NCBI GenBank assembly: GCA_008632985.1
Contig: QPGO01000357.1
Coordinates: 1-41,579 of the forward strand
Source of the DNA: Psammoneis japonica
Lineage: Eukaryota
Direction: 5' to 3'
Length of the DNA stretch: 41,579 nt
Shown: positions 1 to 25,993 of the stretch, one piece after another
Position numbering within the stretch: position 1 is the first letter of the stretch
How the letters are laid out: each line of letters opens with the position of its first letter
Notes under the pieces: model-generated
Told to the model about the DNA's origin: nothing
Seen by the model: only the letters and a program-made list of their open reading frames with translations
Database searches by the model: none
Program-made: the position numbers and the translations under genes

Positions 1-246
1 GCACACAGAGATCACCGATGCCACGCCAAGAAGACAACAAAAACCTGGCAACATGCTGACATTGGCGCCAGAATCGACTCGGATCCCACGCGCACAGCCC
101 GCAAAAACTGCATGCAACAACCACCCCTTGTTCCTTGTTCGTACGGTGTGACTGCATTGACCACACAATTTCCACTTTCAAAAGATTTCACTGAGGAAAA
201 CATTGCAATGATGACTTCAATTGTTGTGGGACGGATCTGTTGCAAC

Positions 247-423
247 GATTCTTGAGAATCTGCGATTCTTGAGAATCCGGACATGGAATTTTGTGAAAAC
301 CGTTTTTTAAGAATCGGACCTCGTGCAAATTTCCCGTTTGTTGTGAACCACCGATTCTCCAGAATCATGGTCACCGATTCACAAGAACTCCCTTTTTGGC
401 CATTTTCCAGATTCTCAAGAATG
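247..423. repeat. Six degenerate copies of the 14-bp palindrome GATTCTTAAGAATC (subterminal repeats)
   Basis: gattcttgagaatc 247-260 and 264-277; gttttttaagaatc 302-315; gattctccagaatc 353-366; gattcacaagaact 376-389; gattctcaagaatg 410-423. Confidence 0.75.
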
Positions 424-621
424 GCAGACATGCTCAAGATGTGGCACCCTTGCTCTTCGGCCTCCTCTTTCTTTGCTCCTGTTTTCACTTTGTGCCATTC
501 TGTTGTTCTTCTTGGCCAAGATTGGCCCCACATTGTCGCATCCACCGCCATGTCCGTTGCTCTCCCTCCCTCCCAACCAGATGCCACTGTCCTCACATCT
601 TCCAAGAAGGTGAGGGCCATC

Positions 622-1055
622 TGCCCCATGCATGCACTGGGCGCTGAAAAAGAAGATGTGTCACGACTTTGTCGTTGTGAAAATCATGAGCCAGTTTAGA
701 GTAGAAAAAGTGGGATCGTGCGAATGGGGAATCTTGCCAAATCCCTGTTCGCTCGCATTTGGATCGCATCAAATCGATCGTGCGCTCGCATTGTGGATCG
801 TGCAAATCAAGCCATCACGCACCACACACGAGTGATGTCATCGTGTGGAATCACACTGCCATCGTTGGCCAGATGACGGGCTAGTGTGCTTCACACGGAC
901 GCTCTCTTAGCATCCTTCTGGAATTGCTGAAGACCTAGAGCCACGCCCTCCTGTGGTCGTGCTTCCCAGGTACGTGTTAACAATACTACGTTGCCACGTA
1001 CAAGAGGCTTATGCACGGTCTCGCCGTGTTGTCCAGTAACGAGGCATGCTGCACA
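622..1055 (-). repeat. 3' LTR (last few bases and TSD damaged)
   Basis: Matches 5442-5874 and the reverse complement of 2806-3241. On the minus strand it begins TGTGCA right after the PPT catgggggag. Confidence 0.92.
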
Positions 1056-1092
1056 CTCCCCCATGATCAGGGCCGTTAAGTGACAGAATGTC

Positions 1093-2396
1093 TTACTGGT
1101 GATAGGGTACAATCTGCCGTAGTTTATACGTATCTATCAGCGCTCCGTTCTGGATACGCAACGTGCCGTTGTCATATACACGGACAACTCTGGCGGGTCC
1201 TGCATAGCTGTCAGAACCGTATTTAGAGGATTGTTCCTGTTTGATAAGTACCAATTGCCCTACGGTATATTGATACTCTTTGCGTTTCTGATTTTCACGC
1301 TTGTTGTTTAAGTGGATAAGCTTCTGCTTTCTGGTTTCTATGTGCTTCCACTTAGCACGATAGGCAATAGATAAAACCGCATCGCGTCCGAAGACCAATT
1401 GCATGGGACTTGCACGCGTGGTCGTGTGTACCGTAGCTCTAATAGCGAAGGCTACTGCGGAGAGGATGCCACTCCATGGGTCATCTTCATCCAGTTCCAT
1501 ATCCTGTACTGAAAAGGAACGTACCATGTTACCAAGTGTCTGGTGTACACGTTCCACTATGGCATTCGCCTGTGGATTCCGTTTACTTATGGGTTTCTTC
1601 AAAATCCCATGGTCATTTTTAATCATCTGGCTGAATTCTGCCATAAATTCTGTCCCACGGTCATTTGGCTAAATATATAAATTCTGCCATAAATTCTGTC
1701 CCACGGTCATAAACCACCTGGGTTGGCCACGGATATCTGCATAGCCACGTTTGTTCTACGACGTTTGCTACGACGTCTGCGCGTTTCGTAGACACTTCTT
1801 TAATCTCGAACCACCCGGTTGCTGGGTCAATCATTGTGACCGCCCATAATTGCAAAGTGTCCTTTCCGTGTCTTTTAATTTTATATGGCCCTATCATATC
1901 TATGCACAGAGTCTCCCATGGAATTATCTCGGCGACCTTTTCTGGTAGCTTCCCATAACGCTGCGTTCGGCGTTTTGTCTTCTGACATCGATCGCACTTA
2001 AAGGACGTAGAATGCACCGTAGACCTCATACTAGGCCAGTAGAAGTGCTGGGCAATAGATATTTCCGGACGTGTCTCACCTGGATGACACAGTGTCTCGT
2101 GGCACCATTCAGTTAGCGGAACCTGCAATGACTGTGGTACTGCGATTTTGTCCTTATGACCCTCCCCCACGATACGCGCGAATGGAGTAGTCGGACGAGT
2201 CCTTAGCTCGTGAGAGCAGGCACTTGTCCTTTTGTTGTTCTTTTTGAATGCGCTTGAAGTTAACAGGCAGATATAGCTCATCTTGAGCGTCTGCATTAAA
2301 GGCTTCATGCAAAGGACGACTCGATGGAGTGTCTTTTACATCCGGATTGGCCTCGGAAGGCAAGCTGGGTGCCAGTCGAAGGCGACTGAGAGCATC
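1093..2396 (-). pseudogene. Gypsy pol 3' part: RNase H end plus integrase (HHCC, D,D-35-E, C-terminal GP motif); frameshifted, mostly TpA-intact
   Basis: Motifs DALSRL, HETLCH...CDRC, LCIDMIGP, YDRGTEF, NPQANAIVERVH, YAGPARVV. Frameshifts near 2155 and at 1634-1710, where a 31-bp duplication plus 15-bp filler hits YDRGTEF. Confidence 0.93.
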
Positions 2397-2805
2397 CTCT
2401 CCGCAGCAGCCTTCGCCATTAGAGCTGCGGCACACACGACCACGCGTGCAAGTCCCATGCAATTGGTCTTTGGATGCAATGCGGTTTTATCTATTGCCCA
2501 TCGTGCTGAGTGGAAGCACATAGAAACCAGAAAGCAGAAGCTCACCCACTTAAACAACAAGCGTGAAAATCAGAAACGCAAAGAGCATCAACATGCCGCA
2601 GGGCAATTGGCACTTGTCAAACAGGAACAATCCTCTAAATGCGGTTCTGACAGCCATGCAGGACCCGCCAGAGTTGTCCGTGCACATGACAACGGCACGT
2701 TGCGCATCCAGAACGGAGCGCTGACAGATGCGCACAATCTACGGCAGATTGCACCCCATCACCAGCAAGACATTCTGTCACTCAACGGCCCTGATCATGG
2801 GGGAG
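2392..2805 (+). pseudogene. Inverted, TpA-hypermutated second copy of the integrase C-terminus plus PPT
   Basis: Gapless match to the reverse complement of 1056-1469; all Tyr codons became His/Cys and the TAA stop became CAA. Confidence 0.95.
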
Positions 2806-3608
2806 TGTGCAGCATGCCTCGTCACTGGACAACACGGCGAGACCGTGCACAAGCCTCTTGCACGTGGCAATGCAGTGTTGTTGACACGCACCTGGGAAGC
2901 ACGACCACAGGAGGGCGTGGCTCCAGGTCTCAGGCAATTCCAGAAGGATGCCAAGAGAGCATCCGTGTGAAGCACACCAGCCCGTCGTCTGGCCAACGAT
3001 GGCAGTGTGATTCCACATGATGACATCACTCGTGCACAGCATGTGATGGCTTGATTCGCACGATCCACAATGCGAACGCACGATCGATTTGATGCGATCC
3101 AAATGCGAACGAACAGGGATTTGGCAAGATTCCCCATTCGCACGATCCCACTTTTTCTACTCTAAACCAGCTCATAATTTTCACAACGACAAAGTCGCAA
3201 CACATCTTCTTTTTCAGCACCTGGCACACACACAGGGCACAGCATTGTTGACACGCACCTGGGAAGCACGACCACAGGAGGGCGTGGCTCCAGGTCTCAG
3301 GCAATTCCAGAAGGATGCTAAGAGAGCATCCGTGTGAAGCACACCAACCCGTTGTCTGGCCCACGATGGTGGCGTGATTCCACACGATGACATCACTCGT
3401 GCATGGCGCGTGATGGCTTGATTCGCACGATCCACAATGCGAACGCACGATCGATTTGATGCGATCCAAATGCGAGCGAATGGGGATTTGGCAAGATTCC
3501 CCATTCGCACAATCCCACTTTTTATGCTCTAAACTGGCTCACAATTTTCACAACGACAAAGTTGCAACGCATCTTCTTGTTCAGCGCCCAGTGCATGCAT
3601 GGGGCACA
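2806..3608 (+). repeat. Full LTR (2806-3241) followed head-to-tail by a 5'-truncated LTR (3242-3608)
   Basis: TGTGC...GCACA termini on the full copy; the second copy restarts about 68 bp inside the LTR and ends ggggcaca at 3608. Confidence 0.92.
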
Positions 3609-3611
3609 GTG

Positions 3612-5350
3612 ACAGTGTGTGTCGACTGTCGAGCAGAGCACTGCTGGCGCCACTGTCTGGCAGTGCCTCAATGGTTTGAGTCTTGCCCTTGCCATGTTTG
3701 GCATTCACAGCCATGAACAAGATTGGAGCAAGATGAGTCTTTTTAACTCGTTTGCGGGATTGGCCTACAACACGTGTACGATGGCAACTCAATTGTTCAT
3801 CAGTGCATTCACCCAATGTGTTGAAATTACCTGCATCGTGTCGGCAAGTGTCGAGTCTTCGGAATCACTTAAGTTGAGGTCGCGGAAGTGATTGAGCTCC
3901 TCCTCGCGTGCCTTGCGCTTTTTCTGAGCGTTGGGAAAGAACTCCTCGACCTTCGGTCCGTTGAGAGCATCGGTGTCTTCCTCATTCCGAGGTTTTACAT
4001 TGGGCTTGCTGCCTCCATCACTGGAATGTCCAGTCTTGACACGTTTCACGTGGTTGTTCGGTTGGGTCGTGATCAACGACTCACAATTGTCCGTTCTACG
4101 TCCCCGCTTGCGTGAAACCCTGGCATGTGGGTCGCGGTTACCTTCGGCAAGCTCGACCTGCTCGGTGCGCTTGCAGAACTGTGCAAATTTGGCGACAGCA
4201 TGCGCCAACGGATCAAAAGTCTGTAACATCATGAACTTCTGCCATGCGTTCGGCACACCGTACAGTCTGCTCACGTTAACATGTGCTGGGGGTGCATGCC
4301 GAATTTCAGCACATGTTGTAGAGAGGGTGCACGTCATCGCTTCTTGGCACAAATGCACGTGTCTTTGCCACATGAGCAGCATGAGTGATGAGAAATGCGT
4401 AGATTGAAATCTTGTGCTTCGCCCTCACGACTCATGACGCTTTTGGGCCACGTTCGCGCGGCGCCACCACTGTAATTTTTGAAAAAAACCCATGGCTGCC
4501 TTCATCAATTCTTTGGTCCTGCCAGGTGCAAAGAAGCCCAGGACCACTTCTCAGAGGCACAAAATGGTCAATGAGGGCATTTGCAGTTGTTGCAAGTGCA
4601 GTCTTGATGATTTCATCGCCTCAAACTAGTCGCATCATCGACACATCACGGATTCGCGACATGGTCTGTCGGTCTGTCAGTCCATCTGTTGACAGGGAAG
4701 TCTGACCTTCGTCCGAGGGGTCAGGCCGGATTTTCAGTGTGTGTTGCAGAGAGGGTGCATGTTAAAAAGCATGTGTCAACGTGAGCAGACTGTGCTCGAA
4801 CATGTCGCATGGTTCGTCATCAGGTGATGGTGCCGGTGCTTCTCCATCCGCCGTCACAGGTGGAAACTGAGAGACACAGCCGTCAACTTCAACAGCCCTC
4901 GCGACATGGTCACGAGCAGAAACCTCTGCGGGCTTGCGCATGAAGCGCCTGAGACAACGCTTCTGCAATGGTGCCGCCCCATGTGGGAAGATGCTTTCCT
5001 TTAGCTTCGCGACGCATGCTGCGTGCGCAGCGTTGGTTTGGGATGCCTGCTTCTCAGCGGCATTGTTGAATGACGTCAGAGCATCGCCCTGAAGCAGGTC
5101 ACGCACAAGGGCAAATTTCGCTGGCCCGGTCGTGATGTTTTGTCCATCATGCACGCGTTCCACGTTGCGCAGAAAGATCAGGAGTGTCTCGCATGTAGCC
5201 ACAGAAAGGCACGGGATGCCCATCTCGTGCGTTGGACCATCCGCATCAGTGGGGTTGTTACGTAGCTTGAACGTCTGGTGCTCGCCCTGCTGCAGCTCTT
5301 TCTTCTCCGGCCGTGCGAACAGAATCGGCGGCTCAACCCGCTTCTTCATG
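3612..5350 (-). pseudogene. Gypsy gag and N-terminal half of the aspartic protease, interrupted by a MITE
   Basis: MKKRVEPPILFARP...LLQGDALTSF...RRFMRKP gag signature. Removing 4263-4792 restores ...FE-YGVPNAWQKFM. The protease active site reads ALPDSGAS (expected ALLDSGAS). Confidence 0.85.
4263..4792. mobile_element. 530-bp non-autonomous Tc1/mariner-type MITE inserted in gag
   Basis: 25-bp TIRs CAGTCTGCTCACGTT(A/G)ACA.... TSD is TA at 4261-4262 and TG (converted TA) at 4793-4794. Excision restores the gag frame. Confidence 0.88.
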
Positions 5351-5441
5351 GTCGTTTTGAGATTTGTCGGTCCTGCCAACATTTCGTAGTTTCGTTTCTG
5401 TAGATTTCGTTGCCTCGCACAATGTGCGGGAGTGATGTTGC

Positions 5442-5874
5442 TGTGCCCCATGCATGCACCAGGCGCTGAAAAAGAAGATGTGTTACGACTTTGTCGTTGA
5501 GAAAATTGTGAGCTAGTTTGGAGTAGAAAAAGTGGGATCGTGCGAGGGAATCTTGCCAAATCCCCATTCGTTCGCATTTGGATCGCATCAAATCGATCGT
5601 GCGCTTGCATTGTGGATCGTGTGAATCAAGCCATCACGCGCTGTGCACGAGTGATGTCATCGTGTGGAATCACACTGCCATCGTTGGCCAGATGACGGGC
5701 TAGTGTGCTTCACACGGATGCTCTCTTAGCATCCTTCTGGAATTGCCCAAGACCTGGAGCCACGCCCTCCTGTGGTCGTGCTTCCCAGGTGCGTGTTGAC
5801 AACACTGCGTTGCCACGTGCAAGAGGCTTGTGCACGGTCTCGCCGTGTTGTCCAGTGACGAGGCACACTGCACA
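5442..5874 (-). repeat. 5' LTR
   Basis: TGTGC...GCACA termini; lies directly upstream of the gag leader; matches the other three LTR copies. Confidence 0.92.
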
Positions 5875-5876
5875 TC

Positions 5877-7150
5877 TTCATGGAGACCAAACACCATGAA
5901 GCTTTCAACTTGATCGCCTTTGGCGTCAAGGACAACCAATTTGATGATGTGTTGCTTGTGAACAACTCCAAGTTGATGCTTCGTTCTGAGTGGAAAACGA
6001 AGGTTCGCACTGTCAAGTTCTGGAACACCGGACTGGATGGGCTTGACCAAAAGGAGCTCTGCAAGCAAGTTGGCAACCAAGCTTGCTCCTGGGTTTGCCT
6101 CCACCTTGCAGAGACAAATGACTTTGGTTGCGACACTCTCTTCCAAACCAAGAAGAACTCCGATGGAGAGATTGTTTCAAAGCTCACAGCTGTTCACCTT
6201 GAGCAGACATTTGATGTCATGGTGCAGCACCATCACCAGACAGGCGGTCATCTAAAGCTTGCCCGAACATTCAATGACATCAAGAAAAAATGCTGCAATG
6301 TGACAGAACAGCTGGTTTCCCACTGCATTGATCTGTGCCCCACTTGCAGCAAGACCCAGCCATCTGTGGCAAGAGTTGAGGGGGCTCGTGTCCCAATCAT
6401 GAGCCGGAGTTTTTGTGACAGGTTTCAGATGGACCTTGTTGACTGCCGAAAGGACCCTCACCAGTTCTGCCCAGGGGACCCCAACTCCCCAACCATGAAG
6501 TGGCTCATGGTTTTGAAAGACCACTGCACCAGGTTGCTCTGGACCTCTGCCATTCCCTCCAAGGAAGCAAAGTGGGTTGCCAAGGAGTTCTGCCACATTT
6601 GTTCTTTGATCGGCTGCCCCCTTGCAAGCCACACAGACAATGGGAAGGAGCTCACAGCAGAGCAAGTGACTGAAGCCATCCAGGAGCTCAACCCGTGCTG
6701 CAGCACTGTCCAGGGTGGTGCCAGAATGCCTTCGCACCAGGGTTCTGTGGAGCACTCAAACCACCCAATTAAATCAGCCATCGCTTTGCTTGTCAAGGAA
6801 GAGATCCACAAGGGAAGCACCAATGCATCATGGGTGACGGGGCACCCCAAGGCAATGGCGTCTCTCAATGCAACTGCCAACAAGGGAAAAAGCGAGTGCT
6901 CTGCCTGCTTCCATGTCTTTGGCATGGAGTTCCATGAACTCCTGACAACCGTTCCCCTTGCAAACCTGCAAAGTGCCAAGACTGTTGCTGAGAGATGTGC
7001 CATCATTGGTGGAGACTACAAGAGGAAGATGCTGGCAATGGGCAAGGTCACTGAAGAAGAGATTGCTGCTGTTGTTTCCAGCAAAATTGGTCCATCAAAT
7101 CTCTCAGCCACTGACTCTGTTGCTTCAGTGGGTGATCCTCCTCCATCATT
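5877..7150 (+). pseudogene. Ginger/KRBA2-like integrase (HHCC plus DDE core), TpA-hypermutated
   Basis: HHQTGGH...CPTC; FQMDLVD; VLKDHCTR; HTDNGKEL; RMPSHQGSVEHSN; almost no Tyr and excess Cys/His. Confidence 0.85.
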
Positions 7151-7159
7151 TGGAAATGT

Positions 7160-7393
7160 GTGCATTTGGCGCAATTGGCTTTTTCCAAATCCGTTTTTTG
7201 CCAAATCGAAGGGCAAGTGCACACTTTGCATGTATTTTTGGGTGCACACTCACCTTTCGATTTTCGAAACGATCAAAATTGAAGGAGTTAATTGCACTAA
7301 ACTGCGCAGAACATCGGCCTCTCGCGTGATGAAAAGCAGAGCACCTGGAGCTGGAACAGGCCTGCAGGCAATCTCGCTGCCAACTTCCACGCA
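7160..7393. mobile_element. Possible ~234-bp insertion in the Ginger ORF
   Basis: Non-coding-looking stretch flanked by a gaaatgt direct repeat (7153-7159, 7394-7400); no convincing TIR. Confidence 0.3.
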
Positions 7394-8059
7394 GAAATGT
7401 CATCCCCCTCTCCCAAAAAATTGAACGCCTCTGCATCTGCAGTCACTTTGTTCTCACCAATTGAGTCTGGCAAAAACAATGGAGAGCAACCCGCATTGCC
7501 ACACTCACCAGCAGACACGGAACAACCAACCCCCCCCCCCCCCCCCCCCCTCCTTCGATTGCAGCCAAGGCATCACCAAACAATGTGAAGGCACCCCTGT
7601 CCAATCCAACCAGTGTGCTGTCCAAGCCGTGTGCATCCAAGGAATCACCAACCAATGCAGAGCCACCCAAAGCCAATTCAATTGCTGTGCTGCCCAAATT
7701 GGTCACAGCCAAGGAATCACCCACTGACGTGGAGGTTGAAAAAGATTCACAAACCACAGTTGGGCTGCCAACAGAATTGCCAACAGATGTGGAGCCATCC
7801 AAAGCCGGGGTTGCCAAGGCACAAGCAAAGCTGGAGCAATTTTTTTCTGGCTGCAACACTGAAGACACAAGTTGCCAAAAAAAATTTTTGGTCAAAGTTT
7901 CACTTCAACCGTTGGATGGCTTTGTCAAGCACAAGACACCGTGTGACCCTGGATGACGGCACCACACCAAAGTGTGTTCATCCACAACTTGATTGCCCCA
8001 GGTGCTGCCTGTCGGGCAAACCTTTCAAGGTGGCATGCTGTGACAACGATCACATCCAC

Positions 8060-8990
8060 AACAGCAGGAGCAGAAGCCAATGGTTTGACACAAAATTTGT
8101 CTCAAGTTTTGCACAGTTGCTTGCACACGAGGGTCACCCGCAAAACACGAGGATGCTTCATGTCATGTGTGGTGCAACGTCCTTGGCTCAACTTCAAGGG
8201 TCATTGAACAGTTGACCAATCTCGCTTTCAGGGTCAGTCACAACTCTCTGCTCCGCAGCCAACCAGTCATCACATTTTGCTGTGCTTAAATTTTTGTTGC
8301 CGGAAAAAAATGTTCAAGTTTTTGAGGGCCTTGGGTGCAAACTCACCACCTGGAATGACGAAATCATGTGCGCTCTCAAGAGGTGCGGCCTTGTGTCCAA
8401 GGAATCTCTCAAGCAAGATGTGTCTTGGAACATGAAGAGAATGGAACTCCACCAGCAGCCAAGAATTGTCATTCAGGTGCATGGAAAGTGCAAAGAGGAG
8501 AGGTGTCAGCAGCACAAACGGACACCCACAGCTGCGGCCCTCGTGCTTGCGTTTTACTTTGGGACATTCTGTCACCCAGGACAATGCCCTTGTCCTTGCA
8601 ATTGATGTCTCCCGAAAACTGTTGCCTTGCTGTGATGAACAAGCATTGTGATCTTTTGGAAAATGATCAATCAAAAGATTTGCAATTTCTCCGAAAAGTC
8701 AAGGGTGTCACCATTGACTGGGAAGAAGAAGAGCATCATCCCAAAGTTCCCAACTCTAACATTGTCACGATTGACCAAGAAGTTTCCACAAAAAACACTT
8801 CAACAGATGATCCCACAGTGCCTCAAAGGATGCGTTGTGGATTGTGCCTTGACAAGGAGCTTCCGGTGGACACGGTGCTTCATTGCTGCCAACTGACTTT
8901 GCATCTGCACTGTGCACTGGGCTGCCTTAACTCTGACAGTTTGTGCCCCTGCTGCCACTCAGAAATTGACGAGGCTTGCCTCGAAAAACT
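8060..8990 (+). pseudogene. Ulp1/C48-like cysteine protease remnant followed by a RING-like Cys cluster, within the Ginger element
   Basis: HFAVLKF...VQVFEGL...QTDTHSCGPRAC fits the H...D/E...QxDxxxCG layout; CGLC...CCQLTLHLHC...CPCC; several frameshifts. Confidence 0.6.
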
Positions 8991-10315
8991 CAATGACGAC
9001 AACGTCAAGTTGCTTCTGGCGGGGTCTGGAGCAGAAGCATCCTCACAGGTTCAAGATTGTGGGAAGCCTGGAAAACTGTCAGTTGTCCACAAGACAGAAA
9101 GTGTCTCGGACAGCTCAGAAAGGAAGGAAGACACAGATGACAAGTTGTCGCAGTCACCCCACTGTTGCGAGAAAAAAAATCCCAAGGGCTCATTTCTGAA
9201 AACAGGAACACAAATGAGGTTCAAAAGTTGCAGCTCTTTTTGGAAAGAACGCAAAGCCACAATTGCCGGATTCCACAGAAACACGGTGGTGACCTCTGAA
9301 GGCGACTGGTGGTTGGGATTCAAGAGTGAAAAGGAGGAAGATGAAACCATTGAAGAGTGGGAAAAAGTTGATGTGCATGATCCAGCAATTGCCTTGGAGC
9401 CACCACCAGGTGAACGACCCATTTGCATGTCATTGTGACTGTGGCATGTGTGCGTTGACAAGGAATTGCAAGAGTGGTTGCGGGAGGCAAAGTTGAAGCG
9501 ACCAACAATTTATGACCAACTCATTGCCAAAACAACAAAGGAATGTGGCGAAGGCAGTGCCTGGGCCATTGCCAAACCAACTGGTGTCGCAGCGAAACGC
9601 CAAACAATTGCCAAGATGAAGGACTTGGGAACCATGCCTGAACCCAAAACAGGACCTCCATGCAAGACATGGAAGCTGGATGGTGGCACACCAACCAGTG
9701 ATTTGCTCCCAAACGACGATCATCAAAACCGCAGAAACAAGAGAGCACACAGTGACAAACTCGCTAAAGATCATCAAGAACGCGGTCACAAGAAAATGAA
9801 GGTGCGATTTGAAAAAAGTTGTGCTCTTGTTCCCGGCTGTTTGGCCGGAATGAAGGTGGACAAAAGAGATCGCAACAAAGGCAACCATCTTGGAATCATT
9901 GGTGTGGTGCATGAACAACATCCAGAGAGCATGTTGGTCAAGGTGGTGACAGAAAGGTGGCATCACATCCACTCGCAACAAACCAAGAAACATTCAAGCA
10001 AGAGATTGCAGCCCTTTGCAGAACCAGCATGTGCCCGTCACCAAAGCACTTGACAAGTGGCGACAACAAGTCAGGGACGGCACGTTCGATGAATCATCTT
10101 GTCCAAAGACAAGTTTGAACAAGGCCCACAAGAACAGCACAGGAGACCAACCCAACAACATTGATCAAAAACAGGGTGCGGTTGTCACATGTTGCTTTTC
10201 ATTGCGAGGCAAACCCCCTCAACAAAATTTCAACTTTTTTCATCATTTTAACTTTAGCGCGACGTTGTCACAAGACTGAATGGAAAGTCTCGACACAAAC
10301 AGTTGACAAAAATCG

Positions 10316-10949
10316 GAATCCCACGGATTCCCTGCCTCCGCCTTGGCTGTCTGCACTCCGATGACATGGCACAGTGGAAGCATCTCTTGTCAATCGATGC
10401 AATCACATGGATGTTGTCTAGTGTGTGTGCAATGTTCGCACCCGCACATGGACTCACAGTGTTTGCCACGATGAAAATGGTCGCCAGCAGGTGAAGCAAT
10501 TGGGACATGGGACCAGGCTTGGAATCGCCAGTGCCAAGAAATTGGTTCCCTTTTTCACTGTGCACAGGGGAGGGAGAGGTGGGTTTTTCAATTTTCATCA
10601 TTGGCATCTCCTTGGAGATGCCTCGACAGTGCCATGGTGTCTCTCATCCTGCCAGACAATGAGGAATCCCTTGGGCTGTCCTCGTTTCCGCTCGTCTCGT
10701 CCGTCGTCCATCCTTCAACCCATTTCGCTGCTGCATTCGCACGTTGACTCTTGGTCCAGTCAAGGAGGTCCTCTCCTTGCTTGGCTTAGAGTCTTGGCTG
10801 TGAGAATCCCACAGATTCCCTGCCTCCGCCTTGGCTGTCTGCACTCCGATGACATGGCACAGTGGAAGCGTCTCTTGTCAATCGATGCAATCACATGGAT
10901 GTTGTCCAGTGTGTGCGCAATGTTCGCATCCGCATGTAGACTCACAGTG
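10316..10949. repeat. 3'-terminal repeat set: 146-bp direct repeats B2 (10316-10461) and B1 (10804-10949) around A2 (10586-10803)
   Basis: gaatcccac(g/a)gattccctgcctccgccttggctg...gactcacagtg occurs twice; A2 aligns to 21349-21566. Confidence 0.9.
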
Positions 10950-11189
10950 CTGCAAGCATTGCGACAGCGCCCATGTCAATGGAGGCAGAGCCAACCGGAA
11001 AAAAAAAGAGATTGTCTTCTGACATGAGGAACAGACAAATGTTCCTCTCGAATGTGGCACTTGAATCTGAAGTTCAGATGAAATTTTTAAAATTTCAATT
11101 TTGAATGTCTGATGCAGAAAAACGACAGCATGCGGATGGCATCGTACAGAGAGGACGAAAATGGAACAGACATGTGTGAACAGCAAGAA

Positions 11190-12330
11190 AACAAATTGGT
11201 CAAAGAATGGCACAGGTGCCGCCTTGTCGAGGGCTCGGCAGTGGGCCTGAGAGAGACCCAAGCAGTTACGGAGGTGCACCATGAAGGCGTTGGATTGCCA
11301 TCTTAGCAGCCATTTAATCTGCTCGGTGCCAAAATTCATCTCATGGAGGATGTTGCAGGCTCCAACATGGAGGGAATGTGCTGACCATTTGCTGACAGCC
11401 TTTTTGTCCTTCACCTGGTCGAGGTGGTGCACCTCTGCTGCAATTCGGCGCATGTGGGCCTCAATTTTCTTGGTTGTCACAAGGCAGCACTCATTCTCCT
11501 TGGGATCGAAATGGAGGGCCAGGGGGCAGGTTTTGTCATCTTCGCTGCGGACCCGTGCGAAGCGTCAGATCACGCGAAGCATCGGCTTGACCAAGTCGTG
11601 AGTGCCCGTGAGGTTCAAGGCGAACTGGCGCTCCTCGCCATGTTGCAAGTTCTTCTGGGCTTGAAACACAACAAACATGCTCTCGATGTCATCTTGCTTG
11701 GGGGCAAGGCAATCAGCCCCAGTGCATCGGTGCTTGTCCTTGGTCTCAATGCGCACATCATCAAGGCAGAACGCGCATGTCTCCTCGAAGATGTTGAGCC
11801 TGGGATTCTCCACGTCTGAGTGGTCATTGGACTGTGCCCACTCAATGCTGCGCAGGCCTGCCATCAGGCCGATCTCAAACCAGTCAGCGAGGACCACCTC
11901 GATTGCGTCGAGGTCAGTTTCTTGCATGTCTGCTGCTGTTGAAGTCGCGTGTTGTTGCACAAGCAACGTGTGCGACTCGCGTCGGCTCGGGACCTTGTCA
12001 CGCCATTGGAGTTCATCAAACACTCCCCTGAGGATCCATCCCATTTTGGTGTCCACACTGTTGTCCTTGCGGACGTCCCGACAGTTGGAACCAAACAGAG
12101 ACACGAACGTGGAGACGTCGTGGATGCATTCCTTGATGGCACCTGCAGAAATGTTTTTACAGTGCAGGGTGGCCCCGGTTGCCAGATGTGATGCATGCAT
12201 GGCTGGCACCAATTGGCAACATTTTAGGTCCTTTCCAACCACAGTCATTTCCGGATCGTCTAGATCCCACCTCACACTCTTGTAAAAGTGGAGGAAATGG
12301 ATTTGGCGGGAACGAGCTGTCCCCAAGTCG
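11190..12330 (-). pseudogene. Tyrosine recombinase of the DIRS/Ngaro-type element, inactivated
   Basis: GLMAGLRSIEW (box I Arg); SAHSLHVGA (HxxR box with R->H); LLRWQSNAFMVHLRN (catalytic Tyr reads His); frame break near 11565. Limits approximate. Confidence 0.9.
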
Positions 12331-12855
12331 CTTGGGATCTGGGGTGCTGTTCTGTGCTTGGCAGACAGCTGTGAGGAGAGGAGCTGTGAGAGCTCTTGAC
12401 TCGGCTGGAAATGGCCCCAGGTCTTCAGAAAGGGACACTTCCAAAACAGCTGTTCAGAATGGTGACGATTCGAGATCAGGGCAAAAACAGAAGGTCGTGA
12501 GATGTCATCTGCGACAAAATTCTTGTCACCGAAGATGTGATCGCCATTTGGGTTGGCATGCGCACGACGCAGCAATTCACAAAAAACCCATGTGAGTCGT
12601 TGCCCTTGTGGCGACTTCGAAGTGGCTTTGTTTGTCCGGTTGACTGATGCCATGTCATCTGAGTGACTTCTGACAACCAGATGCAGGGGGACGACGCCGT
12701 CCCGGAAGAACTCATGCACCTGTTCTGGAGTCACATTCTCCATGCGAACAACAATGGCTGCCAACTTGAGCATGATGACAACAAACTCCGCTGTGTTGAC
12801 ATGGACACAGTCCGGATCCGTTGACTTCCGCAGCCTGAGACCCTTTGCGATTTTT

Positions 12856-13245
12856 GACGCGTTCCAGCCCCAGGTGGGACTCCATGTGACATTGGGCCCG
12901 TAGAATTCCATGTGCGAGCTCCGCAGTTGAAGAATTTAATTGATGGACACATTTGTCTTCAACATCAAATGAACGGCCAAGTTTGTGGTGCAATTGTGCC
13001 TCTTGCCACTCGACGTTTTTGCAAATGCGCCTGCCCCACGCGATTCTTAAGACATTCTAGAATCGCGCTGTAACAAAAAATGTCAAAAGTTGTTGGACGG
13101 ATCGCTCAACAAGTGCACCGTAAAATGACACAAAATGTCGAAAAATTCACGTAGAAATCTGCGTGCGCGACATGCGACGTGATTCAAAAAACTGTCGATG
13201 TCACAGTTCAGTGGCACGAGGTCCCACCTAGACCTGGAACGCGTC
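12856..13245. mobile_element. 390-bp MITE (GACGCGTTCCAG termini), TpA-converted copy, inserted in RNase H
   Basis: ~25-bp TIR; 4-bp TSD tttt; excision restores WRPKIAKGLRL; second copy at 24237-24627. Confidence 0.92.
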
Positions 13246-14124
13246 TTTTGGTCTCCAAAAGAAAAGCAAACAAAAATTTGAGCTTGCAGCAACAGGCACC
13301 TCCGCCGACGTTGCTGGCGTCTCCAATTGCTTGGCAGTGGGGCACCCGAGGGATGACACATCCCATCGGTGCCGACCATGGGTCTGGAGTTGATTGGATG
13401 TGTGATTTCACTTCCTTGATCACATCCATTACATCGGAGGTCATCGGGATCTCAATTTTCAGCTTGTAGAGGAGCTGGGCCTGGGCGCGTGCGAGCAAGC
13501 TTGGCAGCCTGTTCCGGAGTTGGCTTGGCAGTTGAGTTTCAAAATTTGATTTCAAATTTTGGCGCTCGAGGATGCGCTTCACAATGGCGCACTGGACGAC
13601 CATCGCTCGATGCATGGAGTTCTGGAGTGCAAAAAAATGGGGTCGAGCCCATGGGCAATGCCTCACATGGAACTCAAATTGACCATGCAGATTCGCTGCA
13701 TCTAGCAGTGTGTGTCGTTGTCTGCCAAGCCACTCATGGAGTGTTTCAAGGAGCTGTTCCCGTTTGCATGGTGGCGTGCCCACCGACATCTTTCTCGAGT
13801 TGAAATGCTGGCCCAAGGCTTTTCGCAAATGTGAACAGAGCGCATCCAATTTTTCTTTGCTGAGGAAATCAGGAGTCTCGTCGCGGGGGAAACCCAGCAG
13901 GACACAGACCGCCAAAGCACTCGCCACGACGGTCCGCTCCATGAAGTCGTGCATGTTGCCACAAAAGTTGTTGTCGACATGGTGCTTGCAGGTCGGCAGG
14001 AGACGATGGCCATCAAGAAAGACTCCAGGGTTGATGGCATTGGCTTCCACGGGAGAAAAGGATGCAATCTCCTCGGCAGTGGGCTGCTCCGCAAACGACA
14101 TGGTCGGCAGGTGCTGATGAGCCA

Positions 14125-14680
14125 GACGTGTTCCAGCCGCACGTGAACCAAATCGTGCACAAAAACGACATTTGCGCGATTTTTGCGCGGTCCCCAACTT
14201 GCGATCGAACTTTCACCAACAAAAGCACAGATTCACACAAATGCAAATGTTTTGCAACACTGACAAGACTCGTGTGAGTGTTGCAACATCATTGTCATTG
14301 TGCCATCTGTGTTTTTCATTGCGTTAAAAGATTCGCAACACAACGGATGATTTTCGGCGAAAACATTGCCGTCATTTGGATGTCACCCAAAAACATCTTT
14401 CTACGATGCTGCTTGGTGGGTTTTCCACCTGCAAAAAAATCTCAGCATAAATCTGCTGATGTACAATCAGTGTTGAGTCTGCTGAGGAAGTTTGTGATGC
14501 ATGTCCCATGAGGATTTGAACACCCCTCAAAAAAACCATTTAAATGTTCATGCTCTAGAAGCCTGCAAAAGTCAATCCGTCTAAGCATTTTTGTTAAAAT
14601 GCCACATGCACCAAAACATGCATAAATTGCACTCCAAATCCGATTGTCGTTTTGTGCGTCACCTGGGACTGGAGCACGTC
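14125..14680. mobile_element. 556-bp MITE with related GACGTG(T/C)TCCAG termini, inserted in RT
   Basis: TIRs gacgtgttccagccgcacgtga and gacgtgctccagtcccaggtga; 4-bp TSD gcca at 14121-14124 and 14681-14684; excision rejoins VIELA-HQHLPTMSF. Confidence 0.88.
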
Positions 14681-16187
14681 GCCAGCTCGATGACATTGGG
14701 AACAAGCCAAAAATGTTGAGCCAGGGATTGCCTTGCATTTGCAATGGGGTCCCAGTTGCTCGGGTTGATCTTGTCCCCGAAGGTGCAACCCGTTTGCAGG
14801 ACGCCTGGTCCGCATTGGACGCTGGCATGCATGCTGACGAGGTTCGGGTGATGCTTCACATTGCGGAACATGCCACTCACGTCATCGTCCCCGAGGCAAA
14901 TCTCCTCATGTGGGTGTGAGATCCTCATGTTCCATGTCCACACCATGAAGTCCATTTCAGCTGATGGGAATGTGATTGGAGGTTCATTCTCCAGATCCAG
15001 TGTGTCGTTGATTGCCATGCCGCCCGGTGTTGGGCGCATCGTGCTGTCAAAGATTGGACGCGGGCTTTTGCACTTCTTGTCCAAATCTGCCATTCCTTGT
15101 GGAGTTAGATGGCAATTCAGCAAGTGCGGCACGAGCTGCTGGTCAAATGGCAATGTGAACCCCTTGCGAGATTGTCCTTGACAACTGCTGACAATGTCTT
15201 TGCAGGATCTGCATCAACAGTCTTGTGGTTGCCATGGCACAAGGCTGCTTGAAAGTTGGCTTCCGAGAAGGCAGCATTGCATTTCACTGGCACCCTGTCT
15301 TGGAAGATGCGGCGGACATGTGCCATTGTTTCATTGGGGACTCGGCCTTGCATGAAACGGAGGATTTTTGTCCGTGTCGCGGTGCTCGCCAACATGTGGT
15401 CCGCCAACCCAGCGCACCAGATTCGCCGGGTCTCCATCGAAGTGCAACAGCACAGCACTTGTCATTGCTGCTTGGTCATCATTGACTTCAGTCTCCATTT
15501 GCCACCCTTTTGGGATGGCCACGCAGCAGGTTGAAGTCAACATCGCCGTGTTCTTGGACCAGACCCATGAACACAGCCACTCCCGGGACAGCGGCGCCAA
15601 AATTCAACCAATCCTCACCAAAATGGATGCTGACAGACGCAGGATTCATGTGTTTGATTGGTGGTGACAGATGTCCCGACTTCCAGAGTGGCAACAGCAC
15701 ATGATGCAGACAGGCTTCGGACACAAAACATTGGTTCAAATTTTCCTTGCCGAATTTTTGGTCCAACTTGGCGCGAACCCCCGGAGACAGTTGCGCACTG
15801 GCAAAGTGCTCGCAAGCTGCCTTGTTGAAACCATTGTTGATGGCTGGGATCAAATCCGCACCCTTCTTCTTGTGAACCAACGTAAAAGTCGGGAACAGCT
15901 CCACCAGCTCTCTCTCTCTTCGAGAGGTGCCGTCGGCACAACCGCAAGCCAACGCAGGCTCGGATGTGGTTCCATCACAGACGTGGCAAGCGCAGCATCT
16001 GTGGCTGGAATGGCATCCTGAATGCTCATTCCGGCCTCCTCTGGCTCTGCATCTGCTGCTTCACACTCCGGGTCGCTGTCGTCGTCCACATCCATTGCAA
16101 TGAGACGAGATGACCCATCCGGGATGACACAGACCAGTCAAAAGATTGATGGCACAGATTGAAACAACACTGGGTTTTCAAATGTGT

Positions 16188-18143
16188 TTAGGATGCACCA
16201 TCTGGGCCCTTTCCTGGGACAAATTCGAGCCCCTGGGTGTCCCGGACAAATTGGCAAAAGGCGTCTCGCTTTGCCTCCAGAATCTTTGACACCAATGATG
16301 GGTGTGGCTTTGGGCAGTTAGGGAACTTGCAGCAGCATCCTTCAGCACAAAAATGCATGCAAACACGTTCCTCCTGGTCTGATCCGTTCTTCTCATAAAA
16401 GACTGGACAGGCAGGAGGGCGCCTTGTTGTTCCCGAAAAAGTGAGCATGCCCATTGCCTTGTAGAGCTCGGCCGCACTGTCGGTCGTGTCCTCCGCACGC
16501 GGCTTCTTCTTAGGAGGTTGACCAGACTTGGTCTTTTCATCCTGTTTGTCTCCAGCAGGGGGCAACACAGAACTCCCGAGAGGGACAAGGGCCAATGCAG
16601 ACGCTTCAGCAAAGGCGAGAGGCTTGCCCCGTGTGATGGCCGTGTTGAGATCCGCGATGAGGGACTTTGCCAGAGCACGAGCATCCTTCGCAATCTGATG
16701 GCTCAGTGGGCGCTCGGTTTCAACCGCCTGGCGGTGCAATGGAGAGTCCCCAATCTCGAAATGAACCTTGACAATGGTCTGGAAATCATCCATGACACTG
16801 GCAACGACTGGTTTCGGGTCCTCAAGGTTTTTGAGCCACGCACGGCCAGGATGCGACCAAAGGACCTTCGCGCATGCATCCAATGATTTCCACAACTCGG
16901 CATTGTCGAAGTCTTTGATCCAACAGCCAAAGACACAACGAAAGTTGCACAGTGCCGACCACAGATTGCTGGTGGCATCCATCCTCCCTTGGACACACAG
17001 GTCGCTTGCCTTTGCGTCGTCTGGGATCTTGCAGTCCGATCTGTCAGCAAGCACCCAATGGAGCGTCCTCCCTTCCTCCTCAAGGCTGGCAAAAGAAGAT
17101 GATGCAGTCTGGGGCGGAAGGAAGGGGAGGATTGACAGCTTTGTGCGGTGAGAAGCCTGGCTGTGCTGCGGAGGCTCCGCAACCACGTCAAAGCCGCAGA
17201 AACAATCCGCGCAGGCTTTGTTGACGACGGTGCACTTGTAGTCGACTCCGGCATCAAGACCACTGTCGCCACGAGCCGAAGCCACAACAGCCATCTTAAC
17301 AAGGTCCGCAAGGTCTCGGTTGGCGTTGGCTGCCGATGTGTCTTGTGGGATCTTGACTGCACTGTCCGCAAGCTCCCTGACAATGACCATGGGCGGGTCT
17401 TCCGGACCGGCACCAGCAGTCGCTCGGAACGCACATGGAGACCAGCGGTGACCAACATCACGCGCCCTCAACTTCTGATCTGACTCCTTCTTCGAATCCT
17501 GGCATGAGACATTGATGGTGTGGTTCGGGACCAGGCCGTTGGCGCCCTGAGCTGGAGCGGCGGGAGCTTGTGCATGCGCAGGCTCTTCACCACCGAGCTG
17601 CCTCCAAGTCTCATTCGCAAAGGCATCCATCGTGCTCTTGACTAGAGCACACCAATCCGTGAGAGGCTGGAGCATCTGTGCATCGTCATCATCAAGATTG
17701 CAGACCTCCAAACCGGAGAATTTGTCGATGACAGCAAAGCCAGTCTGCTCAAACACAGGGCCGCCTTCCGCGACGGAGACAGAAGCGTTGTGCTGCAGCA
17801 ACCAGTCGATGCCCTCAGCCCATGCCGCTCCAAGCGGAAAGTCAGCAGCAAGGGATGCTGGGGGGTTTGCCGGGTCGAAGTCAACAGGAAGAGCAACGCC
17901 CACAGGGATTGGTGGGAAAAGCGGGAGCGCAACAATGGCAGGGCGCTCAGCCGGTCCAGTGGGATTCCCAAAATGGAGACGACCCACCGACGCAGGGTCA
18001 CTGGTCCCGTCGTTGCCGACAGGACCGTCGGTTTCGTCAGGGCTCAGTTCGCACTTGGGCAGGTGGCAAGCATCCACGGCGCCTTGGGGAACTAAAGTGG
18101 TGACATGGCCTTGGAAACGAGTCCAACGGCCTGCAGCAGGCAT
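16188..18143 (-). pseudogene. ORF1 (gag-like) of the YR retroelement, with C-terminal CCCH-like zinc motif; open but TpA-hypermutated
   Basis: Long ORF upstream of RT ending in CMHF...C...C...H. Start placed at ATG 18143 because the TpA-intact paralog (19701-19944) has TAG stops in the upstream extension called in the ORF track. Confidence 0.75.
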
Positions 18144-18561
18144 CCCTGCGCAGCCGTCGTTGATGCCACTTTCCTGCGTCTGTGGGCTGTCCGTAGCGAC
18201 GCTGATCCCGCAGAAGCGCGCATTGGAAAACGCGACTCCTGGCACAAGACCTGTGAGAGGCTGCAGGAGGTCCATGCAACTGAGACCGGTGCGACTGGCC
18301 ATCGCGCAAGTGACTCACCTTGCATGAAGGGACTGCGTGGGGTGCACGCAGTGCCGAGTGTGAGCCTGTGGATTGGCTCTGCATGAGTGTCTGTGAGTCA
18401 CACAAAAGACTTGTCTCAGTTGCATGGACCTCCTGCAGCCTCTCGTGGGTCTCATGCTGGGAGTCGCGTTTTCCAATGCGCGCTTCTGCAGGATCAGCGT
18501 CGCTGCGGACAGCCTGCAGACGCAGGAAAGTGGCGTCAACNGACGGCTGCGCAGGGATGCC
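18139..18561. repeat. Fold-back: 18413-18561 is an inverted copy of 18139-18287
   Basis: Direct reverse-complement match of ~150 bp; contains an N at 18541. Confidence 0.9.
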
Positions 18562-19000
18562 CACTGCACTCGCCCCTGTGACAAGGTCGTACGAGTGACA
18601 GAAGGTCCTGCTGCTGGAGATGGACATTTTGAGGCATTTCACATGTGTCCACCAGCGCACCTTCTCGCACACGAAGTGTGACATTTTCGTCGACTTGAAC
18701 AACTGCAGCTGGCCCTGCATGACTGTCGGTGCCCGCCACTGTTCGTCCGTTGTTCTTGCTTGACAAGCACAAGTTGTCCCTTCGTTTGTTGGCACTCTCT
18801 TCTCTTAAAGTTCTCACGCTTGTCATTCAAGCGGAACATTTTCTGCTTTCTGTCTGCGACATGCCTCCACTTGGCACAACAGGCAACAGATGAACTTGTG
18901 TTGCGTCCGAAGACTGTCTGCATCAGAGTTGCCTTGGCAGTGGTCTGCAGCCCTGCAGTTGTACGTACAGCAAAGGTCACGGCAGAAAGTTTCAATCCAA
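18562..19000 (-). pseudogene. Diverged Gypsy integrase C-terminal fragment with PPT-like end
   Basis: LSAVTFAVRTT...MQTVFGRN...KWRHVADRKQK...NDKRENFKRRE...GQLVLVKQEQ, homologous to the 1093-1469 protein. Confidence 0.8.
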
Positions 19001-19700
19001 GGGTCGTCCTAACTCCATGTCTTGCAGTCCACTCGGATTGCTGTGTCAAGAACGCAGGTGTCACGCGGCTCCATTCCACCATGGAGTTCGCCCTGGGCAA
19101 AAAAAAAAAAGAAAAAAAGGCAGCGCATCGACACAATTGCAGAGGTGATCAGGCTCCACTTTCTGTCATGGCAACACCCATTCTGTCTTTGACAGGCAAT
19201 AGACAAAGCAAAAATTTCTTGCTCATATCACATTCTTTCACCTTCACGGAAAGAACGCATCTTTGAATGGCGGGCTTTTCGTCATAAAGCTCTTTTTTAC
19301 GCCAGTTCAGGTTGTTTTTTTTGAAGTTTACATGTTTTTTTGGCTCTTTTACGCCTTTTTTTGGCATTTTTATACTTTTGCAATTTTTATAGCCGAAGTG
19401 TCATATCCTTATATATAATATTCGGCGTTTCAAAAACGGCATTTTTCTTGTCCGTTGGCGTCGTTGAATTCAGTTAAACCGAATGGTCTGCAGCCCATGA
19501 GCGGTTAAGTACTCTGATTTTTTAGAGCATAAGATTGACTTTTACGCGGGTATTTGTCATATGTTGGGTTTTTTCGTTTAACCCTTCGAGCGTTTCGTCA
19601 CATAACGCCTCGTTCGTACTTTTGCACATAAAAGTAATAGCACTGTAGAATGTATGTATCTACTTTCACAGTATGTGCATCGTTTTCTGACACATGTAGA

Positions 19701-19944
19701 TTTCCTGCGTCTGTGGGCTGTCCGTAGCGACGCTGATCCCGCAGAAGCGCGTATTAGAAAACGCGAATCCTAGTATAAGACCTACGAGAGGCTACAGGAG
19801 GTCCATACAACTGAGACCGGCGCGACTGGCCATCGCGCAAGTGACTCACCTTGTATGAAGGGACTGCGTAGGGTGTACGCAGTGCCGAGTATGAGCCTGT
19901 GGATTGGCTCCGCATGAGTGTCTATAAGTCATACAAAAAGACTT
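19701..19944. repeat. TpA-intact direct copy of the YR-element leader 18170-18412
   Basis: Colinear alignment with 15 TpA->TG/CA, 3 CpG transitions, 1 other substitution and 1 indel. Confidence 0.95.
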
Positions 19945-21566: not shown

Positions 21567-21964
21567 GTCATTAAATCAATCGTCAAATGATTGCACCCAC
21601 AGCACTGCTAAAGTGATCAGTGAAGTCATCATTTGTGCGGACAAAAATCCACGTGATGAGGTCATTCGATGACCGATTTCCCAACAACATTGATCAAAAA
21701 CAGCTTTGTCGCAGGGTGCGGTTATCCCCAGGCAGGGCCTAAACCCCCTCAACAAATTTTCAACTTTTTTCATCATTTTGACTTTGGCATGACGTTGTCA
21801 TGAGACTGAATGGAAAGTTTCAACACAAACAATTGACAAACATCGGTCATTGAACCAATCTTAAAATGATCACACCCAAGGCACTGCCAGCGCAATTAGT
21901 GAAGTCATCGTTTGTGCAGACAAAAAAACACGTGATGAGGTCATTCGATGACCGATTTGCCCAG
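21567..21964. repeat. ~279-bp tandem repeat (unit 21567-21845, partial unit from 21846); the preceding partial unit lies at 10151-10315
   Basis: gtgaagtcatc...cacgtgatgaggtcattcgatgaccgattt occurs twice; 21680-21845 aligns with 10151-10315. Confidence 0.82.
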
Positions 21965-22159
21965 AACTTAAACAGAAAACAGTTTTCCATTTAAATTTTA
22001 GTCAAATCGGTCACAGTCATCAGAGCAAAAATGAGGACATGAATGTCAATTGGCCGTCATTCTGGTCATCTACATGAGACAATCAAGCTGTGAGGGAAAA
22101 ACCATGGTGCAGCTGCATCCATCACGCCACCACCATGAATGGGTCCATGCGTCACGACA

Positions 22160-22237
22160 CCAAACAACAGGTGTTGTCCCTCCACCGGTGGATTCCGAGA
22201 CCAAACAACAGCTGTTGTCCCTCCACCAGTGGATTCC
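22160..22237. repeat. Two-copy 41-bp-period tandem repeat
   Basis: ccaaacaacag(g/c)tgttgtccctccacc(g/a)gtggattcc twice. Confidence 0.85.
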
Positions 22238-25981: not shown

Positions 25982-25993
25982 GTAGGGCCCTAC
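25982..25993. promoter_or_regulatory. Perfect palindrome GTAGGGCCCTAC upstream of the IPI1-like gene (second copy at 37050-37061)
   Basis: Exact 12-bp palindrome present twice, each upstream of a gene start; function inferred only. Confidence 0.35.

Follow-up and report, generated by a model that had tools for sequence, protein, structure and literature searches.

The 41,579-nt contig QPGO01000357.1 of Psammoneis japonica (assembly GCA_008632985.1; the whole stretch is called the window below) carries copies of a Ty3/gypsy-type retroelement, and about two thirds of its length is depleted in the dinucleotide TpA. Two adjacent copies of the 3′ end of this retroelement, one clean (copy A) and one hypermutated (copy B), show that TpA was turned into TpG or CpA by A:T>G:C transitions on both strands. 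The changes are confined to sharply bounded zones, in which they are nearly complete. They are probably the product of a targeted hypermutation of chromosomal DNA, directed at silenced mobile or foreign sequences.

Spectrum of differences between two adjacent retroelement copies

Copy A lies on the minus strand and corresponds to the 3′ portion of a Ty3/gypsy-type element, in which a stretch resembling a long terminal repeat (LTR) comes after the integrase, at 622–1055. The Integrase_H2C2 and rve domains are carried on two open reading frames (ORFs) of copy A, at 1661–2335 and 1093–1668, respectively. The integrase frame is broken at 1634–1710, where an exact 31-nt stretch is repeated at 46-nt spacing; since this tandem duplication splits the integrase into two ORFs, the unmutated copy A is also defective. 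Copy B is 5′-truncated and lies on the plus strand, where an integrase tail is followed by LTR-like sequence (2806–3239). The two copies abut head to head at 2391/2392.

Positions 1061–1469 match the reverse complement of 2392–2800 without gaps and with 31 differences in 409 bases, exactly as in the initial annotation of this DNA. The repeat itself extends further than the 409 bases given there, as the complete inverted repeat is 848 nt long (arms 622–1469 and 2392–3239) with 92% identity. Read on the + strand in copy A, the 31 differences are 21 A>G, six T>C, three CpG transitions and one T>A, which means that A>G or T>C account for 27 of them. Twenty A>G are located at TpA and one at GpA, and all six T>C are at TpA; on copy B's own + strand the same changes read as 20 TA>CA and six TA>TG. 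From the 33 TpA of copy A, 20 are found as TG and six as CA in copy B (in the orientation of copy A), seven are kept and none is CG, in agreement with the counts first reported. Copy B is without any TpA of its own, all seven being present in copy A too.

The concentration of the changes at TpA is strong. The 66 bases of the TpA sites carry 26 of the 31 differences (binomial p 2e-16). Adenines changed to G at a rate of 20/33 within TpA and 1/60 elsewhere in the pair, and thymines changed to C at 6/33 within TpA and 0/91 elsewhere (Fisher p 1e-14). Similarly, the full 848-nt arm shows 36 TA-type changes against seven differences outside pyrimidine–purine sites. In the right arm of copy B, 36 of 45 TpA are converted and nine are kept, and eight of the 54 CpG of copy A have decayed to TG or CA.

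Both strands are affected. The arm of copy B has 28 T>C and eight A>G on its sense + strand, and the two kinds are interleaved; no strand-coordinated tracts are present in copy B, with 13 runs found and about 13 expected (worked by hand). The initial annotation described the change as A to G. The A:T>G:C transition at TpA on both strands stands, whereas the designation of adenine as the altered base does not, because a T>C on the other strand is equivalent. A local excess of CA over TG was also observed, of +0.22 to +0.28 at 2501–3500 and of +0.39 at 26001–26500; at copy B this skew reflects the 28 T>C versus eight A>G on the sense strand.

The coding consequences are severe. Among the codon differences of the pair, 25 of 29 are nonsynonymous and four synonymous, and the stop codon TAA has become CAA in copy B. 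The integrase tail of copy B has no Tyr and 12 His, compared with family means of 5.7 Tyr and 3.5 His. The peptides quoted for this tail and its lost stop in the initial annotation are correctly translated.

Polarity of the changes

To orient the differences, an outgroup of 38 integrases with 53–72% identity was used, drawn from the best 120 of 1059 matches. At the 24 residues that differ between the copies, the outgroup agrees with copy A in 16 cases and with copy B in three, and four are ambiguous; at the remaining one, the transversion site Asn182, it sides with copy B. For instance, Tyr134 and Ile118 of copy A are each backed by 37 of 38 outgroup sequences and Thr79 by all 38. If the changes are read in reverse, that is, as C>T at CpA/TpG, only one of 12 stop-creating sites has changed, against 24 of 63 others (p 0.05), and that single site is the natural stop of the integrase. 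The TpA observed/expected ratio of 80 related metagenome elements ranges from 0.57 to 1.17 with a median of 0.83; none is depleted, a result that serves as a family baseline only, as these elements were picked by their intact peptide motifs.

Based on the outgroup residues, the stop-codon test and the normal TpA of related elements, the TA-rich copy A is judged to be the original state and copy B the derived one, and the ancestry assigned to the TA copy at the outset is upheld. The opposite reading, in which a process resembling repeat-induced point mutation (RIP) or a methylation-driven C>T change at CpA/TpG built a TpA-rich copy A, receives almost no credence from us. The three sites at which the outgroup backs copy B (His103, His132 and Thr178) would fit it, and diatoms carry RID-like DNMT4 genes, described as of unknown function in the part of PMC9998398 that concerns them. 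Against it stand the 16 of 24 sites that side with copy A, the 11 of 12 stop-prone codons that are intact there, the normal TpA of related intact elements, and the lack of any Tyr in copy B where the family mean is 5.7.

Distribution of TpA depletion in the window

Five depleted zones together comprise 26,899 nt with 148 TpA. Their observed/expected ratios are 0.09 for TpA, 1.58 for CpA, 1.59 for TpG and 0.65 for CpG, and their G+C content (GC) is 0.511. Most 1-kb windows of 3001–19000 and 38001–41000 have TpA at 0.01–0.20 and CpA/TpG at about 1.4–1.9. Three unmutated islands (2,773 nt, 183 TpA) show ratios of 0.89 for TpA, 1.10 for CpA, 1.07 for TpG and 1.12 for CpG, with a GC of 0.451. A gene-like block of 11,564 nt with 503 TpA has TpA at 0.60, CpA at 1.17, TpG at 1.20, CpG at 1.06 and GC at 0.464. 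The edges of the zones are sharp to within tens of bases. All coordinates are collected in table 1.

Table 1. Retroelement parts, depleted zones, unmutated islands and gene-like block of the window
Feature	Positions	Strand	Remarks
Copy A, unmutated integrase C-terminal tail	1061..1469	-	33 TpA; normal Tyr/Val/Ile codons; TAA stop
Copy B, hypermutated integrase tail	2392..2800	+	26/33 TpA converted; TAA>CAA
Left arm of 848-nt inverted repeat	622..1469		LTR-like part 622-1055 plus integrase tail
Right arm of inverted repeat	2392..3239		36 TpA converted, 9 kept
Ty3/gypsy-type integrase of copy A, two ORFs	1093..2335	-	Integrase_H2C2 and rve
LTR-like copy L2, hypermutated	2806..3239	+	repeat comparison
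LTR-like copy L3, partial, tandem after L2, hypermutated	3241..3606	+	repeat comparison
LTR-like copy L4, mostly hypermutated	5444..5874	-	repeat comparison
TpA-depleted zone	1..880		right edge between 702 and 882, within LTR-like part of copy A
Unmutated island 1 (copy A)	882..2340		TpA observed/expected about 1
Main TpA-depleted zone	2392..19190		0-8 TpA per 500 nt
Unmutated island 2	19200..20153		part 19701-19944 has hypermutated twin 18170-18412
TpA-depleted zone	20160..24250		TpA count
Unmutated island 3, repeat unit of about 390 nt	24252..24611		hypermutated twin 12856-13245
TpA-depleted zone	24612..25630		TpA count
Gene-like block, not hypermutated, internal control	25780..37343		holds duplicate 27385-29128 / 29559-31296
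TpA-depleted zone with lowest CpG	37470..41579		CpG 0.22-0.66 in 1-kb windows

Every island can be paired with a hypermutated twin, and where the two disagree at a TA site, the difference almost always runs one way. Between copies A and B, TA is on the island side at 36 of 37 such sites. The same holds for 24237–24627 compared with 12856–13245 (TA in the first copy at 17 of 17) and for 19701–19944 compared with 18170–18412 (14 of 14), so that the recurrence of the spectrum in other pairs of the window, as initially claimed, is borne out.

CpG decay shares the depleted zones, with a CpG ratio of 0.65 there and of 1.06–1.12 elsewhere. Within the zones, CpG falls to 0.22–0.49 at 6001–10000 and 38001–41000, compared with 0.63–1.0 in most other depleted parts, and these low-CpG stretches look older or more heavily methylated.

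Errors introduced at modified bases during sequencing, base-calling or polishing, or a chimeric assembly of repeats, are highly improbable as a source of this pattern. The family is of very high copy number, with a summed word depth in the thousands, and chimeric joins could create sharp islands; the window also contains one N (position 18541). On the other side, contigs from a public run, possibly the source of the assembly, cover 30 of 30 bins of 600–3300 with an identity of at least 96%. Copy A shares only 92% with copy B, which implies that words of the copy B kind exist in the reads. Miscalls on two strands would give some CG and none is seen, and the effect is uniform across 26.9 kb. The same signature is present in unrelated public proteins, and the accessible text of a preprint on Bigelowiella natans (Mettrop et al., bioRxiv 10.64898/2026.01.13.699255, 2026-04-14) has it called from Illumina data of mutation-accumulation lines.

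Properties of the process

The four LTR-like copies have 41 variable pyrimidine–purine sites. Fifteen of them are TA with TG and/or CA, 13 are CG with TG and/or CA, and 13 have only CA and TG; none of the 41 holds both TA and CG. A single event makes a TpA site immune and it never proceeds to CG, because TpA is palindromic and is therefore lost on both strands after one change. By our own arithmetic, TpA conversion is estimated to be about 10 times faster than CpG decay and at least 100 times faster than the background, given seven other differences in 848 nt.

Beyond TpA itself, no strong motif was found in the compared pairs. The 3′ neighbor of the edited A was C in 33, G in 23, T in 20 and A in 11 out of 87 oriented events, so that A is disfavored; as copies overlap between pairs, these events are not independent of each other. 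Among the 148 surviving TpA, TTAA is enriched 3.8 times and CTAA/TTAG 3.1 times, while ATAT (0), ATAG (0.14) and ATAC (0.19) are scarce. This bias of the survivors may reflect a weak context dependence of the process.

Duplication of a sequence is not by itself the trigger. Within the gene-like block, 27385–29128 and 29559–31296 are duplicates of about 1.75 kb with 93.6% identity, representing the 3′ half of an Ipi1/TEX10-like gene. They differ by an ordinary spectrum of 30 transversions, 23 other transitions, 16 CpG-type and 12 TA-type changes; the TA-type changes are split 7 and 5 between the copies, and 56 TpA are common to both. This untouched duplicate, together with the clean copy A right beside copy B, shows that duplication alone does not attract the process, and the term "inverse RIP" proposed in the initial annotation has to be abandoned as far as it implies induction by repeats.

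At the protein level, Tyr is replaced by His or Cys, Val by Ala, and Ile by Thr or Val. TAA occurs 32.8 times and TAG 24.5 times per kb of island sequence, compared with 4.6 and 3.0 times per kb of depleted DNA. As both stops are nearly gone, long false ORFs arise in depleted DNA: 34 of the 41 ORFs of at least 170 aa are located there, long and overlapping in several frames (e.g., 5859–19263).

Two general causes were rejected. GC-biased gene conversion is ruled out because A:T>G:C changes are absent outside TpA. UV photoproducts at TA, or general damage, are ruled out because the effect is zonal.

Content of the depleted zones and of the gene-like block

Similarity to the retroelement within the main zone is limited to 2392–2816, 3607–5466 and 18635–19097, plus an integrase ORF at 5859–7421. 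It amounts to about 4 kb of the 26.9 kb of depleted DNA, and about 22 kb show no similarity to this retroelement family. A strict Pfam scan of 30 long ORFs of the depleted zones gave only rve, in one of them, and left 29 without a family; a relaxed scan of 12 such ORFs returned only noise. The TE-rich (transposable element-rich) chromatin invoked by the initial annotation is only partly supported, by the integrase and LTR copies, which are affected; such similarity covers those 4 kb of the depleted DNA.

A 265-aa ORF (37346–38140) begins exactly at the edge of a depleted zone, with 0.8% Tyr, 4.2% His, 4.9% Cys and no Pfam match. Hypermutation may here have reached a gene, either of the host or of foreign origin. 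The single N of the window lies within a depleted zone, near the degraded integrase tail of 18635–19097.

Two ORFs of the gene-like block, one Ipi1-like (791 aa) and one with Rad60-SLD (538 aa), are uninterrupted. A GT..AG intron of about 130 nt at 31770–31900, the sole intron identified in the block, joins two DUF285 (BspA-like repeat) ORFs. DUF285 is generally common in diatoms, and these repeats together with the intron-poor genes would fit a diatom host. The homologue search with the Ipi1-like ORF gave five matches of at most 33% identity. A 170-nt tandem repeat of 96.5% identity (36337–36506 and 36508–36677) is located in the Rad60-SLD ORF, where it repeats about 57 residues.

Proposed mechanism and alternative explanations

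A process that explains these results would alter the palindromic TpA by A:T>G:C transitions on either of the two strands. The first event would remove TpA from both strands and leave the site immune. Within targeted zones the process would go nearly to completion, with G+C rising by about six points, and coding capacity would be ruined while long false ORFs appear. The guide would be some mark of silent chromatin rather than duplication; such a mark is the likelier candidate since the affected zones also carry CpG decay. Copy A and the other two islands may have escaped until now, or may have been inserted more recently. The spectrum, its polarity, the confinement to zones, the near-saturation and the independence from duplication are shown by the data, whereas action on chromosomal DNA, a role in defence and the chemistry are inferred.

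Action in place, on the chromosome, is hinted at by the following results. The LTR of copy A has three of five TA-class sites converted left of 702 and none of 10 right of 882 (hypergeometric p 0.02, by hand), and about 22 kb of the depleted DNA lacks similarity to the retroelement. The CpG decay of the same zones and the precedent of B. natans also speak for it.

Several observations weigh against this explanation. A mobile or foreign origin is demonstrated for only about 4 kb of the depleted DNA, and the window contains no element that has kept both LTRs. The edges at 2391/2392 and at about 24237–24627 match the ends of repeats, which fits mutation before integration. The public-run contigs are 63–106 nt long and come from a run that is possibly the assembly's own source. 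At three residues the outgroup prefers copy B, so that a few CpA>TpA changes may have occurred on the copy A line. The evidence from public proteins, presented below, concerns amino acid sequences only, and the query used to collect it was itself hypermutated.

The edges lead directly to the possibility that retroelement RNA or cDNA was hypermutated during retrotransposition by an ADAR/APOBEC-like activity, so that copies landed either mutated or clean. We regard this as rather remote. Copies look all-or-none (A clean, B 80% converted) with a switch exactly at 2391/2392, and the island at 24252–24611 coincides with a whole repeat unit. ADARs prefer a 5′ U, as mentioned in the Discussion section of 10.64898/2026.01.13.699255, and all A>G but one follow T here. 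On the contrary, editing of the sense RNA predicts A>G only on the sense strand, and copy B shows T>C at 28 of 36 sense-strand changes with the two kinds interleaved; ADAR-type editing of a sense RNA is thereby excluded. The 22 kb of depleted DNA without detectable retroelement similarity and the LTR of copy A, apparently part-converted at its outer end only, also oppose it. Moreover, the signature in B. natans arose, according to the accessible preprint text, in resident chromosomal viral DNA in culture.

With respect to chemistry, and provided that the targeted process is real, our analysis gives about even chances to an enzymatic deamination of adenine to hypoxanthine at 5′-TA-3′ in DNA. 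A competing view, to which we assign a low but appreciable probability, places the lesion on thymine. In this case, T at TpA in silenced DNA would be marked as 5-hydroxymethyluracil (5hmU) and then 5-formyluracil (5fU) by a TET/JBP-like dioxygenase or a different modifier, and the modified base would mispair with G and yield T>C. The loss of TpA would then be a by-product of an epigenetic mark, as the loss of CpG is for 5-methylcytosine.

Once TpA has changed in a duplex, T>C and A>G are indistinguishable, and T>C dominates on the sense strand of copy B (28 of 36). The depleted zones carry CpG decay, a sign of modified silent chromatin. In dinoflagellates, 5hmU made by a TET/JBP homologue silences TEs, and earlier work cited in the same article has 5hmU favoring the thymine of TA and TC dinucleotides (PMC11572971, in the passages concerned). 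On the other hand, no comparable loss of TpC is found here, T>C off TpA being 0/91, and the origin of T>C from 5hmU/5fU at such a rate is our own suggestion. The available text of the B. natans preprint favors adenine deamination, likewise as a proposal.

Traces in public proteins

A word-based search with copy B retrieved a metagenome integrase, P0142, with 63% identity. Of five conserved Tyr positions, four (134, 150, 155 and 189) are occupied by His or Cys, and Val140 and Ile142 are replaced by Ala and Val, respectively. Five of its deviations are of the TA-loss type, against 0–2 in 38 controls.

An exhaustive HMMER search with copy B was evaluated on the best 150 of 958 representatives, of which 119 had at least 100 aligned residues. 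Fourteen of these 119 are Tyr-poor (at most one Tyr and at least nine His+Cys), compared with none of the 38 controls. In nine of the 14, the GPY of the family consensus is replaced by GPH or GPC, and Asn, Lys, Phe and Ile remain plentiful. The Tyr-poor, His/Cys-rich fragments observed in metagenomes and assemblies are P0142, P0155, P0156, P0165, P0171, P0172, P0182 and P0187, and further P0188, P0201, P0205, P0206, P0239, P0253 and P0291.

Judged from their residues, the flagged fragments are likely hypermutated copies from other hosts. This suggests that several diverged lineages of the retroelement family have been subject to the same process.

Significance

A broader proposal, to which we lean slightly less than to its opposite, is that TpA hypermutation is a widespread, duplication-independent defence of marine and freshwater protists rather than peculiar to one chlorarachniophyte. 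Retrotransposons and integrated viruses would be silenced through the loss of TpA, which also removes Tyr codons and two of the three stops, perhaps with a modified thymine as the lesion. If true, the window would be the first saturated example in a second, intron-poor (diatom-like) lineage, and the Tyr-less integrases of metagenomes would be its environmental trace.

Within the literature searched, such mutations have been reported for a single alga, in the 2026 preprint, and the enzyme given there is a proposal. A second host offers a comparative handle, as genes common to both hosts and absent where the footprint is missing become enzyme candidates. The three unmutated islands are clean test substrates and the predicted next targets. 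A genome-wide diagnostic is also at hand, namely a TpA ratio close to zero combined with CpA/TpG around 1.6, and proteins that lack Tyr but are rich in His/Cys. Finally, the false ORFs of depleted DNA are a warning, as they inflate gene counts and sets of "orphan" proteins.

Comparison with known systems

A known mechanism of similar form is RIP of Neurospora and other fungi. It is triggered by duplication, mutates both copies and converts CpA to TpA, so that TpA is raised. The process described here resembles it in its dinucleotide-specific transitions, its action on both strands and on mobile DNA, and its compositional footprint. It differs in its opposite direction and target, in the untouched duplicate and in the clean state of one of two adjacent copies. 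RIP was rejected on polarity, which is the reverse of what it requires, and on the discordant TA sites, which are found in one copy of each pair at 36/37, 17/17 and 14/14. The RIP-type indices are 0.10 for TpA/ApT and 1.71 for (CpA+TpG)/(ApC+GpT), with the RIP thresholds taken as quoted in PMC7884421.

Several other systems share single features with the depleted zones. Decay of methylated CpG co-occurs there, as illustrated by the eight of 54 CpG of copy A that are TG or CA in copy B, but it concerns CG and not TA, is about 10 times slower by our estimate, and has site classes that never mix with those of TpA. Editing of retroelements by ADAR/APOBEC enzymes acts on one strand of the RNA or cDNA and leaves a one-strand spectrum. 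It is alike as a deaminase-type hypermutation of retroelement copies, and the 5′ U preference of ADAR fits TpA; here, however, both strands are changed, mostly at the antisense adenine, and DNA without similarity to the retroelement is included. The 5hmU of dinoflagellates is likewise a thymine mark tied to TE silencing, with a TA/TC preference, but a mutational footprint is not described in the passages of PMC11572971 consulted, and TpC is unaffected here.

The closest parallel is B. natans. The claim in the initial annotation that no described pathway makes such changes does not hold, since the preprint of Mettrop et al. (10.64898/2026.01.13.699255) describes the same hypermutation. Following its accessible text, TpA>TpG/CpA changes arose de novo in mutation-accumulation lines, and 231 of 302 nuclear single-nucleotide mutations fell within two integrated viral regions. 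All but one of the mutations of these regions were A>G or T>C, and those were all at TpA. Not all lines were affected, and the rate was about 6e-7 per site and generation. The B. natans genome holds 124 clusters of windows poor in TpA and rich in CpA+TpG, and reverse transcriptase and DDE domains are overrepresented among its coding sequences of low TpA. As the enzyme, the authors propose an ADAT2/3-like deaminase of adenine in DNA. No other species with TpA hypermutation is named in that text, and the literature searched yielded no other report of TpA-specific hypermutation, diatoms included.

The two cases agree in that A>G/T>C changes occur only at TpA, are regionally confined, and leave a loss of TpA with a gain of CpA/TpG. 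The clusters of B. natans are defined as runs of 1-kb windows with TpA Rho of at most 0.43 and CpA+TpG Rho of at least 1.52, and this long-term signature is also seen in most 1-kb windows of 3001–19000 and 38001–41000. They differ in that the mutations of B. natans were seen in culture, in one giant-virus and one virophage insert, whereas here they are deduced from copies, and in that DNA of a Ty3/gypsy-type retroelement is affected here. The B. natans inserts are also unsaturated (per the same text, TpA Rho 0.45 for the region and TpA at 9.2% of dinucleotides in the virophage insert), as opposed to 0.09 over 26.9 kb. Furthermore, B. natans has eight introns per gene on average (PMC13746701), compared with the intron-poor genes of the window. 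In conclusion, the process in P. japonica is probably a saturated second case, in a second lineage, of the kind of hypermutation first described in 2026.

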